A DNA stretch of 64,000 nucleotides, from NCBI GenBank assembly GCA_964372495.1, contig CAYJQU010000001.1:100810-164809 (forward strand), read 5' to 3'. This DNA is from an uncultured Gammaproteobacteria bacterium (GTDB lineage Bacteria > Patescibacteriota > Microgenomatia > JAUYPR01). Position numbers: made by a program. This document shows positions 42,001-45,000 of the stretch, in pieces (within the stretch, counting starts at the first letter, position 1; each line of letters begins with the position of its first letter).

Positions 42001-45000
42001 CTACCTTTTTTGCGGGAGATTAGTAGGATGGATTCCACTTCATATAGTACGAGGTTTGCTATATCGGACCCTTTTTGGGATGCGCATTGGATGGCAAACG
42101 CACATCCATATGGGTTTGCGCTTTTATAACTCCTGGCATGTACGCATCGGACGAAACACAGTCATTGGAGATGGGGTGTTTTTGGACGGACGGCACGATC
42201 TTGTCATTGGGAACAATGTGAGTATTGCAAGCGACGTGATGATCTACAATTCCCAACACGATCTTCAAGCTCCTGACTTTCACGCAATCGAGGCGCCGGT
42301 TGTTATCGAAGACTTTGTGTTTATTGGGCCGCGGGTAATTATTCTACCAGGGGTAACAATCGGCAAAGGAGCCGCGGTGGCTGCTGGTGCTGTGGTGACA
42401 AATGATGTGCCGCCGTATCATATTGTAGGAGGCGTGCCAGCGCGTTTTATTAGAGAACGTACTAAGGAACTGCAGTATACACTCAACTACGGTCGCCTCT
42501 TTCACTAAATGGTTGATCTTTCTGTTATTGTCGTAAGTTACAACACGAAAGATTTGCTTACTACCTGCTTGCGCTCGATAGGGGAGTCTAAAGATGTTTC
42601 ATACGAAGTGATTGTCATTGATAATGCTTCAACGGATGGAAGTGTTGAGATGGTTCGAAAAGAGTTTCCACGAGTAGAATGTATCCAAAACAGTAAAAAT
42701 GAAGGATTTGCCAAGGCAGTAAATCAAGGTCTAGCAAGAGCTTCGGGAAAGTATCTCTTGTTATTAAATTCCGATGCGACGGTATTCCCAGACACTCTTG
42801 CATCATTGAGAAACTATATGGATGTGCATCCACAGGTTGGCGTTGTTGGATGTAGGATTCTCAGCGAAGCAGGGAACGTGCAATTTTCTACTGGCTACTA
42901 TCCGACACTATGGCGAGTGGCGCAGTGGATGCTGTTTTGGGACGATGTAGGCTTGAAGTATCTAACTTCCCAATACCATATGGAGAACAGACGTTTTTAT
43001 GAAACAGAGCACAATGTCGATTGGGTACAAGGGGCATGTCTTCTCATTTCCCGGACCGCATACGAAAAGATAGGGGGTCTGGATGAATCGATCTTTATGT
43101 ATGGGGAAGACGTTGAATATGGTTATCGTGCAAAGCAGTACGGATTTTCTGTTCGCTATATTCCATATCCTTCTATTGTGCATCTTGGGCAGGGCAGTTC
43201 TGGTAGTACTATGTCCGCGCTAATCGGTGAATATAGAGGGCTAATGAATATCTATCGAAAGTACCACGGTCGCAGAGCGTGTTACGTGTTGTCTTTCCTG
43301 CTACAATTAGGAGCTGTTTTGCGCTTTTTGTTGTTTGGTGTGATTACCGGTCGGAAAGAGGCGAGGCAGGCGTATGCGGCATGCATTGCAGTGGCTCGAT
43401 AACCACCTACTTTCGTTATTTGCAGCCCTTTTGCTGCTTTTCATACCGCTGTATCCAAAATGGCCGCTTGTTGAGGCTATACCTGGCTACATTGTCCGGG
43501 TACGGCTTGAAGACTTTTTGATAGCAGCGGCTGTTTTGTGGTGGCTTATCGCGATTTTGCGCAACAAGGTAAATCTAGGAAACACTCCGCTTCTTAAATG
43601 GATAGCTGTTTATCTGGCCGTGGGGTTACTGTCAGTTATGTCAGCACTGTTTTTGGTAAAGAGCCTACCACTGAACCCACCTCATGTGGTAAAATTGCTG
43701 CTCCACTACTTCAGACGTATAGAGTATTTCTCTCTCTACTTCATTCTCTTTTCGTCCATCCGGACAATGAAAATGGCTCGACTTTATTTAAGCCTTATGT
43801 TTCTGGCGCTTCTTGGCGTTATCGCGTATGGGTACGGGCAAAAATATCTCTACTGGCCAGCATTCTCTACGATGAATCGGGAATTCTCAAAGGGGTGGTG
43901 GTTGTATTTAACCCAGCACGCCCGTGTGCTCTCTACCTTTGGTGGACACTATGATCTGGCCGCATACCTGGTCATGGCGCTCAGCTTATGCTGGAGTTTC
44001 TTTTTTGGTCTGAAGAAGAAAACGGGGAAGATAGTACTCGGCCTTATTCTTGCACTTTCTTTTTGGCTGCTAATACTAACGGCATCCCGTATCTCTTTTC
44101 TCGCGTACCTCTTGGCTACCGCGGTAGTGGTACTTTTGTATGGGCGGGGGAGGCCGCTGCTTACAAACGTCCTGCGGCTGGTTGTAACCTTGGGTCTTAG
44201 TATTGTTATCATGCTTAGCTTTGGGGATCTTTCTGAACGCTTTACGAAGCTTATTAAGCTGGATCAGGTAAAAACTCAGCTTGCATTCCTGAAGAAACCG
44301 GTAAAAAGCCCGCCCGAGGAGAAGGCAGTTTTCCTTGAAAATAATCTCGAAGCGGTAACCTCAAAAAGCGATGAACCGCCTACTCCTGTAAGGCCAAAAG
44401 GAGGATTCAGCTTTTTTGGTCTGGGCAGTGGCGGCAGTACCTCACAAGAAGAGGAGACGCGGCCAGCGACCACCCCCACCCCCACCCCAATTCCTCGTCG
44501 GCCAATTGATGTGTATGAGGATATTCCTTTACAGCTCCCAGCTACCGATTCTGCGCTCGCGACTCCAGGGGCAAGAACTCAGCAGCGTACCTATTCACAA
44601 ACTGCCCTGCAGTATGACCTTTCCACCGGCATTCGGTTTGATACATTATGGCCCCGCGCCTGGCATGGCTTTTTGCGCAATCCGCTGTTGGGGATTGGCT
44701 ATTCTAACTTGACCAAGGAGCGGGATGATGTGTTTACTGAAGCAGAGTCCACGGACAATGACTATCTGCGGGCCTTGGGGGAGACAGGGTCACTTGGGTT
44801 TATAGCGTTTGGTGCCATTCTCTTTTTCATACTATACAAAGGCTGGTGCGTGTTGCAGGAAACGAAACATACAGTGACACGCGCGCTCACAATAGGGGTA
44901 TTAGCAGGGCTTGTCGGGCTTTTGCTTAATGCCACCTATATCGATGTTTTCGAGGCGAGTAAAGTTGCCATGACTTTCTGGAGCTTGGTTGGGATAACGG

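Follow-up and report, generated by a model that had tools for sequence, protein, structure and literature searches.

A family-wide, predicted extracytoplasmic loop with a lineage-specific Thr/Pro/Ser-rich spacer expansion in a WaaL-fold Wzy_C protein of Microgenomates-group Patescibacteria

The window (the whole 64-kb stretch of DNA analysed here) encodes a Wzy_C-family membrane protein with a long, Pro/Thr/Ser-rich loop that recurs in every relative examined. The window copy is a modest variant of this loop and not an oddity of its own, because most of the stretch is the standard family loop and only about 36 residues are locally expanded. The account that we favour, with somewhat better than even confidence in it as a whole, is that the window copy carries the loop of its family, with the longest spacer known, on a WaaL-fold enzyme of a conserved surface-glycan pathway, its conserved islands being functional and the spacer a passive flexible tether. 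The pathway would be a polyprenyl-phosphate-linked one, common to Microgenomates-group Patescibacteria, and the elaboration of the TM9–TM10 loop, ca. 70–115 amino acids placed between the equivalents of E. coli WaaL R265 and R288, is a family-wide trait. The islands may contribute to the binding of a substrate, an acceptor or a partner at the outer face, while the T/P/S-rich spacer between them drifts in length from lineage to lineage. In the window copy the extra residues were probably added at an insertion-tolerant hot spot by slippage or local duplication, with the (CCACCC)x3 run inside the expansion as a putative slippage substrate.

The gene (Table 1) contains all the sequence landmarks named in the first-pass annotation: SRISFLAYLL at aa 238 (nt 44085), KSPPEEK at aa 311 (nt 44304), RTYSQT at aa 405–410 (nt 44586), and DNDYLRALGETGSLG at aa 461 (nt 44754). 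Its assignment there to the Wzy_C/O-antigen-ligase family was borne out by Pfam, as the product matches Wzy_C (PF04932) with 44 bits against a gathering cut-off of 31.7 (E = 2.5e-11), and so do all 22 members of the family alignment, i.e., the window protein and 21 relatives. The match of the window protein is made of two pieces, aa 225–297 covering positions 2–70 of the profile and aa 413–479 covering positions 76–148, which leaves ca. 115 residues where the profile has about five positions; E. coli WaaL is matched by the same profile in a single piece (205–354 to positions 6–146). As is characteristic of the Wzy_C superfamily, the protein is polytopic (~12 TM) and folds like WaaL, with TM9 and TM10 joined by a large outside loop. 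The family profile found no matches among the PDB sequences at E <= 1 or E <= 10, and the kinship with WaaL is therefore shown by the fold instead. The IctB model TIGR00947 aligned with the C-terminal part only and scored 30.4 bits (cut-off 366.4). A search of the available papers found none on this Microgenomates Wzy_C family.

In WaaL, R215 and R288 are functionally important and H338 of the HNxxL motif is essential, while H349 is the catalytic histidine of PglL (PMC3643930). R239 of the window protein aligns with E. coli WaaL R215 and R289 with R265 (hhalign and hmmsearch, with only the R215/R265 region aligned), and R421 is the equivalent of R288 according to its motif, STGIR as compared with SLGAR, and to the Pfam coordinates, so both functionally important WaaL arginines have their counterparts. 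The position of WaaL H338 and of H349 in N. meningitidis PglL is taken by D461, so that the histidine of neither enzyme is present; R239, R289, R421, and D461 are invariant in 197 sequences, the relatives examined, which comprise 117 proteins and 80 species-level genome loci of Microgenomates-group Patescibacteria. When the C-terminal parts of the window protein and E. coli WaaL were aligned locally, the score was 35, not above the shuffled controls (26.6 +/- 4.5, maximum 45.5), and the mapping thus relies on shared Pfam profile coordinates and on the motif register [H/D]NxxLxxxxExGxxG, by which an invariant Asp appears to replace the catalytic His of WaaL and PglL.

The loop is clearly biased in composition: aa 311–410 comprise 15 P, 13 T, and 9 S, which gives 37% P+T+S vs 14% elsewhere in the protein (Fisher p = 5e-7). 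The AlphaFold2 pLDDT falls below 50 at residues 317–342, 344–371, and 392–398, and in the model of the homologue with the shortest loop it is below 50 for the loop as well, the conserved islands included. Since aa 160–190, a highly conserved loop that is not of low complexity, are also modelled with low confidence, these values may reflect the shallow alignment (Neff 2.5) and not true disorder. The earlier description of an approximately 100-aa P/T/S-rich insertion thus holds insofar as the stretch is real, large and poorly ordered in comparison with the canonical domain, but it overstated the uniformity of a region that includes conserved islands and ca. 36 lineage-specific residues. Lys and Arg account for 9 of 30 residues in the short inside loops vs 7 of 73 in the short outside ones, and the TM9–TM10 loop is flanked by R289 and R421, equivalents of periplasmic WaaL arginines; by the positive-inside rule and these arginines it is predicted to be extracytoplasmic, which answers the question of its topology raised by the first-pass annotation. 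An exhaustive phmmer search with the loop alone against 1.84 billion representatives returned two weak matches, both over its first 52 residues, and the loop is therefore no separate, reusable domain. When all stop-to-stop frames of the window with 150 aa or more were scanned for P/T/S-rich stretches, four others were flagged besides the Wzy_C loop, all of them probably non-coding, judging from their sequences.

Table 1. Coordinates of the Wzy_C gene of the window, its parts and its neighbours
Feature	Position (nt)	Strand	Residues (aa)	Description
Upstream GT2 glycosyltransferase gene	42509..43402	+		Part of the conserved gene block
Wzy_C gene	43374..45032	+	552 in all	Predicted 12-TM WaaL-fold membrane enzyme
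N-terminal half of the Wzy_C domain	44046..44264	+	225–297	Holds R239 (nt 44088–44090) and R289 (nt 44238–44240)
Insertion relative to the Wzy_C profile	44265..44609	+	298–412	Predicted extracytoplasmic; P/T/S-rich, mostly of low model confidence, family-wide
Island SKSDEPP	44361..44381	+	330–336	Motif SKSDxPP; D333 invariant
Spacer expansion PKGGFSFFGLGSGGSTSQEEETRPATTPTPTPIPRR	44394..44501	+	341–376	T/P/S-rich, lineage-specific
(CCACCC)x3.2 microsatellite	44470..44488	+		Encodes TPTPTP; Tandem Repeats Finder
Island PIDVYEDIP	44502..44528	+	377–385	Motif PxDV; P377 invariant, D379 and V380 nearly so
Island RTYSQTA	44586..44606	+	405–411	Motif RxYS; S408 invariant
C-terminal half of the Wzy_C domain	44610..44810	+	413–479	Holds R421 (nt 44634–44636) and D461 (nt 44754–44756)
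PMT_2-type GT-C glycosyltransferase gene	45032..46456	+		Pfam PMT_2, 4e-14; start overlaps the Wzy_C stop codon

Neither an insertion peculiar to this protein nor a plain linker, the two features of the first-pass reading, was found when the relatives were compared. The loop, measured from F290 to R405, is 67–114 aa long in all 197 of them (median 80–81), and D333, P377, and S408 within it are invariant throughout. Its conserved islands in the family are FGDLSxRF, SKSDxPP[S/T], PxDVY, and RxYS; residue 337, which directly follows SKSDxPP, is Ser or Thr in 109 of 117 and in 57 of 81 sequences. The alignment of homologues proposed earlier as a check of lineage specificity has therefore given a divided answer, the loop itself being family-wide and the spacer expansion of ca. 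36 aa lineage-specific.

Within the loop, hypervariability of length is confined to the spacer that separates SKSDxPP from PxDV. This spacer ranges from 1 to 40 aa with a median of 8–12; in minimal homologues the site reads SKSDxPPxPxRPxDV, and the window copy, with about 36 extra residues, has the longest spacer among the relatives examined. Family-wide, the spacer is composed of 21% T, 12.5% P, and 10% S. Relatives with 78, 72, 69, and 61% identity to the window protein carry expansions of 29–40 aa at the same site, and in other lineages, too, expansions have arisen there independently, e.g., in P0104 with TTVKPGSTPSDVPPTTVKPGST, in which a local duplication is visible. Nonsynonymous and synonymous differences stand at 17:10 in the expansion vs 64:116 in TM1–9, which shows that the spacer is under relaxed constraint apart from its composition. 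Apart from the 19-nt CCACCC run, neither direct nor inverted repeats were found in 44280–44640, and no recent large duplication behind the expansion is visible.

Low complexity and a short microsatellite might suggest an artefact, be it a frameshift, a mis-assembly, or a non-coding or degenerating pseudogene segment, and there is also an open reading frame in an alternative frame (44416..44712). Nevertheless, the probability of such an origin is negligible. The stretch lies in one unbroken frame with conserved domain halves on either side; the independent assembly ERR3478686 agrees with the window in 1655 of 1659 nt; and relatives have expansions of 29–40 aa at the same site. At the DNA level the relatives with 78 and 72% identity keep the frame, all indels being multiples of three. 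An assembly artefact is refuted by the independent assembly and the in-frame homologues, and of the two objections that the first-pass annotation anticipated, an artefactual and a cytoplasmic insertion, neither stands, the latter in view of the outside topology.

Among the relatives, the gene order GT4-Hexapep-GT2-Wzy_C-(PMT_2)-GT4-GT2 is conserved; at 45 of 72 loci the PMT_2 gene follows the Wzy_C gene directly, and in-frame Wzy_C::PMT_2 fusions are found in three relatives (P0009, P0011, and P0020). The cluster in the window also comprises genes for a WbaP-like phosphoglycosyl transferase, a Wzx-like flippase, a GT2 at 28770..29489 resembling polyprenyl-phosphate-sugar synthases, and four GT-C proteins of the PMT_2 type.

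This neighbourhood bears on two other readings of the loop. One of them takes the loop for an acceptor of O-glycosylation, a role that the first-pass annotation had supposed for PT-rich linkers: the Ser and Thr residues of the spacer, together with the conserved S/T after SKSDxPP, would be modified outside the cell, giving an extended tether decorated with glycans, and either the Wzy_C protein or the PMT_2-type GT-C encoded beside it would carry out the modification. The extracytoplasmic position of the loop, the T/P/S enrichment that persists despite sequence turnover, and the Ser or Thr present at residue 337 in most relatives all agree with it, and so does the published preference of O-oligosaccharyltransferases for Ser that lies close to acidic residues within disordered, Ala/Pro-rich regions (PMC12645811). 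Moreover, a PMT/PMT_2 GT-C gene follows immediately downstream and in three relatives is fused to Wzy_C, and the spacers are longer at loci with PMT_2 directly downstream (median 13 vs 4 aa, Mann–Whitney p = 3.5e-8); this association is, however, confounded by phylogeny because the PMT_2-less loci are essentially one clade, and seven PMT_2-containing loci retain a 4-aa spacer. The protein also lacks PglL_A and Wzy_C_2, markers of PglL-type O-oligosaccharyltransferases, and has Asp in place of the His common to WaaL and PglL, while PMT_2 is a broad family whose members are mostly not protein-specific, the neighbour scoring far below every NCBIfam cut-off. A T/P/S-rich composition is likewise generic for unmodified flexible linkers; the steady composition and the S/T at 337 are as compatible with selection for glycosylation as with selection for a passive linker. 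On balance, glycosylation of the loop is improbable, and the narrower claim that it is a built-in acceptor O-glycosylated by the PMT_2 GT-C or by the enzyme itself is more doubtful still. If it were true, a His-to-Asp WaaL-fold enzyme would be a glycoprotein, self-primed or glycan-tethered, and the length of its tether would be adjusted from one lineage to the next within the LPS-less CPR envelope.

Alternatively, the loop could be a docking arm whose linear motifs bind the PMT_2 GT-C or another envelope protein, with the spacer setting its reach; such an arm would couple the en-bloc transfer of a glycan with the decoration by sugars at the outside face. Short conserved motifs within a region of low confidence are typical of linear binding motifs, and the adjoining of the two genes, with translational coupling, and the three independent in-frame fusions point in the same direction. 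The motifs are, however, equally conserved in the 27 loci without an adjacent PMT_2, and the fusions, which join the cytoplasmic C-terminus to PMT_2, say nothing of the loop, so that docking, too, seems an unlikely role. The favoured reading remains that of functional islands joined by a passive spacer.

The loop finding as such is modest, since flexible outside loops of variable length are a common way in which membrane enzymes differ. It concerns, however, uncultured, ultra-small bacteria (CPR) whose envelope is poorly understood, and Microgenomates share a strongly conserved WaaL-fold enzyme that has a loop with invariant residues, Asp for the catalytic His, and a GT-C partner sometimes fused to it. 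The family is therefore a tractable target for learning which surface glycoconjugate Microgenomates build and to what they attach it.

Among the known systems, SEDS proteins (FtsW/RodA) give scores far below that of WaaL, have no Wzy_C domain, and stand in a different genetic context. Many Wzy polymerases carry Wzy_C, and the genetic context in the window is of the Wzx/Wzy type, but Wzy is normally serotype-variable, in contrast to the strong conservation of this family and its gene order. The polymerase model TIGR04370 matches the window protein very weakly (E = 0.043, 12.8 bits vs a cut-off of 40), and the genes recognised in the window do not include a Wzz-like co-polymerase. Another ORF of the cluster, 30881..32713, matches a polymerase model slightly better, although it too stays below the threshold. 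With protein O-oligosaccharyltransferases of the PglL/PilO type the family shares the Wzy_C core and an outside-facing catalytic loop, and the composition of the Wzy_C loop resembles the disordered Pro/Ala/Ser-rich acceptor regions that those enzymes favour. PglL-type enzymes are marked by PglL_A (PF15864) and Wzy_C_2 flanking Wzy_C (PMC3643930; PMC12645811), while in the window protein and 21 relatives only Wzy_C was detected at E <= 0.01; the Asp for the catalytic His is a further difference from PglL, and the neighbours of the Wzy_C gene include none for a pilin-like protein or another obvious acceptor.

From WaaL the family differs in the ~109 extra residues between the R265 and R288 equivalents, in D461 for the essential His338, in a sequence similarity too low for a PDB match, in its patescibacterial host, and in its conservation, the identity across the class, 45–50%, being unusually high. 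Patescibacteria are not known to have LPS, and no LPS genes were seen in the window; without LPS, lipid A-core cannot be the acceptor. With WaaL of Cupriavidus metallidurans (PDB 7TPG/7TPJ) and E. coli K-12 the enzyme has in common the Wzy_C domain, the large outside TM9–TM10 loop, both key arginines, and a gene cluster that includes a phosphoglycosyl transferase and a Wzx-like flippase.

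The gene at 43374..45032 (+) is a single unbroken ORF coding for a WaaL-like membrane protein of 552 aa, on which Wzy_C (PF04932) is the sole Pfam family (E = 2.5e-11, 44 bits vs. a cut-off of 31.7). The match is split, residues 225-297 corresponding to profile positions 2-70 and residues 413-479 to positions 76-148, and therefore aa 298-412 (nt 44265-44609), ca. 115 residues, lie where the profile holds about five positions. Pro, Thr, and Ser (15, 13, and 9 residues, respectively) constitute 37% of aa 311-410, compared with 14% elsewhere in the protein (Fisher p = 5e-7). The Pro/Thr/Ser-rich stretch described in the first-pass annotation is thus real, and all the peptides quoted there are found in their places (see the table of features).

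The protein search yielded 2482 relatives, the best 120 of which are nearly all 504-558 aa long with a query coverage of 94-100%, apart from three longer fusion or partial proteins; those of the 120 with a named source are from Curtissbacteria, from a Patescibacteria group bacterium, and from a MAG that bears the label Saccharimonadales. With each GTDB species represented by one genome, a relative was present in 476 genomes; the best 80 loci were compared, and the hosts named for them (Gottesman-, Curtiss-, Chisholm-, Beckwith-, and Woesebacteria) all belong to the Microgenomates group. Several other records are entitled "uncultured Gammaproteobacteria" or "uncultured Pseudomonadales" (e.g., those of loci L006, L008, and L014), and single ones Omnitrophota and Bathyarchaeia. 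These titles look like placeholder or wrong labels of metagenome bins; some of the oddly titled bins carry the Microgenomates-type gene on contigs of 0.7-0.95 Mb.

The stretch F290-R405 is 67-114 aa long (median 80-81) in 117/117 aligned proteins and 80/80 genome loci, the best matches of the 2482 and 476, respectively, which together form a set of 197 sequences. It comprises the conserved islands FGDLSxRF, a PP pair, FLENN, SKSDxPP, PxDVYxxIP, and RxYSxxA, and is not the plain low-complexity linker it had been taken for, as D333, P377, and S408 within it are invariant in 197/197 sequences. Its length varies at one site only, the spacer between SKSDxPP and PxDV, which has 1-40 aa (median 12 among the proteins and 8 among the genome loci) and a family-wide composition of 21% T, 12.5% P, and 10% S, compared with 6%, 4%, and 7% overall. 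The shortest forms of this region read SKSDxPPxPxRPxDV, while the window sequence is SKSDEPPTPVR-[PKGGFSFFGLGSGGSTSQEEETRPATTPTPTPIPRR]-PIDV, an expansion of ca. 36 aa (aa 341-376, nt 44394-44501) relative to the minimal forms; in the sets compared the spacer is longest in the window copy and its 78%-identical relative. It was also lengthened independently in other lineages, in the related protein P0104 by a visible local duplication. The main correction to the first-pass annotation is that the insertion as such is not specific to the window copy, the spacer expansion alone being lineage-specific. A search with the loop alone gave only two weak matches among 1.84 billion representatives; by this search it is no domain found elsewhere. 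A word-index protein search with the loop (window 44238-44609) as query retrieved nothing, the identical database protein P0001 included, and seems to miss short low-complexity queries.

An AlphaFold2 model based on an alignment of 117 relatives (mean pLDDT 80, pTM 0.84) has 12 transmembrane helices, with the long loop between helix 9 (262-282) and helix 10 (463-496). The predicted N-in/C-in topology, with the big loop outside and not, as would have refuted the first-pass annotation, in the cytoplasm, fits the Lys+Arg counts (9 in 30 residues of the short inside loops vs. 7 in 73 of the short outside ones) and the flanking arginines matched to those of WaaL. pLDDT is below 50 at residues 317-342, 344-371, and 392-398, and in a second model, of the shortest-loop homologue P0071, over the entire loop (residues 305-361), which suggests that the conserved islands may behave like linear motifs within a flexible region. 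Low pLDDT is not proof of disorder, since the outside loop aa 160-190 (STMNREF...STFGGHYD), very conserved and not of low complexity, is also poorly modelled and the alignment is shallow (Neff 2.5). The stretch aa 159-191 (window 43848-43946; YWPAFSTMNREFSKG...HARVLSTFGGHYD), the outside loop TM5-TM6, is the most conserved of the protein, with many invariant residues; its pLDDT is about 45-58 in both models, and it has no mappable counterpart in WaaL.

That the stretch is an artefact, for which the chance is negligible, is refuted by the independent assembly ERR3478686, identical at 1655/1659 nt, by relatives of 78% and 72% identity, in which the expansion is in frame with indels in multiples of three, and by the coding pattern of substitutions. 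The ratio of nonsynonymous to synonymous changes is 17:10 in the expansion vs. 64:116 in TM1-9, indicating that the former evolves under relaxed constraint yet is still coding. Besides the (CCACCC)x3.2 repeat, a plausible substrate for slippage, no DNA repeats were found at the expansion.

Features of the Wzy_C gene and of the surrounding glycan cluster
Feature	Position in the window	Residues	Strand	Remark
SRISFLAYLL		238		
KSPPEEK	44304	311		
(CCACCC)x3.2 repeat	44470-44488			encodes TPTPTP
RTYSQT	44586	405-410		
DNDYLRALGETGSLG		461		
Four PMT_2 GT-C paralogues	23794, 29482, 35455, 45032		+	
Wzx-like flippase	26747..27967		+	
GT2	28770..29489		+	resembles polyprenyl-phosphate sugar synthases
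ManC	50647..51774		+	
WbaP-like phosphoglycosyl transferase	51783..52433		+	small
DUF2079, YfhO-like protein, DUF4012	within 23794-57178		+	
Many GT2 and GT4 enzymes, methyltransferases	within 23794-57178		+	

The Wzy_C gene is part of a ca. 33-kb glycan-biosynthesis cluster (23794-57178), encoded entirely on the + strand and followed by recO, an aminoacyl-tRNA synthetase gene, and the first part of a cell-division/cell-wall block, with mraW, a PBP, and a Mur ligase. The gene content of the cluster indicates a polyprenyl-linked surface glycan as the probable product, which would be assembled and flipped from the inside, after which the WaaL-fold enzyme would transfer it and the GT-C enzymes would decorate it outside. 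Two large ORFs of the cluster are poorly annotated. One, 30881-32713, matches YfhO and the repeat-unit polymerase model TIGR04370 (E = 1.7e-4) weakly and below threshold, and its product may be the polymerase of the pathway; for the other, 25218-26750 (510 aa), no matching family was found.

Across the family the local gene order GT4-(GT4)-Hexapep-GT2-Wzy_C-(PMT_2)-GT4-GT2 is maintained, with PMT_2, a GT-C glycosyltransferase gene, directly downstream of Wzy_C in 45 of the 72 informative loci. The window copies of the two genes share position 45032, where the stop codon of the first overlaps the start codon of the second, and in three relatives from different sources, P0009 (locus L001, 3551-6130), P0011, and P0020, the Wzy_C C-terminus is fused in frame to the PMT_2 N-terminus through a linker of ca. 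35 aa. Among loci L004-L083 the spacer median is 13 aa with an adjacent PMT_2 and 4 aa without it (Mann-Whitney p = 3.5e-8), but this association is only suggestive and may be purely phylogenetic, since the loci without PMT_2 represent essentially one Gottesmanbacteria-like clade and seven PMT_2-containing loci retain a 4-aa spacer.

The loop is somewhat more probably than otherwise a family-wide outside elaboration of a WaaL-fold enzyme, in which short conserved islands would recognise a substrate, acceptor, or partner and the T/P/S-rich spacer would form a flexible, insertion-tolerant tether, its longest form, in the window copy, having possibly been gained by slippage or local duplication and evolving under relaxed constraint. 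It is unlikely to be a docking arm for PMT_2, despite the linkage of the two genes, as its motifs are equally conserved where PMT_2 is not adjacent. The proposal of the first-pass annotation that the spacer is an O-glycosylation acceptor is equally doubtful: published O-OTases favour disordered Pro/Ala-rich regions (PMC12645811) and a PMT-like gene is present next door, but PglL-type protein O-OTases are marked by PglL_A and Wzy_C_2, and both domains are absent from the window protein and the 21 relatives scanned.

These proteins already carry the annotation "O-antigen ligase family protein", and the literature searched contained nothing on this Wzy_C family in Patescibacteria. The P/T/S-rich loop is real, but as a trait of a distinct subfamily it is fairly ordinary; more notable are the invariant residues inside the supposed linker, the repeated occurrence of a GT-C enzyme linked or fused to the Wzy_C protein, and a putative His-to-Asp replacement at a position essential in WaaL and PglL.

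The scores of the window protein and these relatives are far under the IctB and repeat-unit polymerase cut-offs, the relatives being the 21 scanned for PglL_A and Wzy_C_2. R215, R288, and H338 were reported as important in E. coli WaaL and conserved in PglL (PMC3643930). In profile alignments R239 of the window protein aligns with R215 and R289 with R265, while its STGIR421 motif matches SLGAR288; R239 and R421 keep the two arginines of importance. The counterpart of the essential histidine (WaaL H338, PglL H349) appears to be D461 (window 44754-44756), Asp in 197/197 sequences, a mapping read from the Pfam coordinates that the proteins have in common and from the motif register ([H/D]-N-x-x-L-x-x-x-x-E-x-G-x-x-G), the direct pairwise alignment not being significant. 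Unlike the split match of the window protein, that of E. coli K-12 WaaL to Wzy_C is in one piece (205-354 to 6-146), and the 22 residues between its R265 and R288 compare with 131 between R289 and R421.
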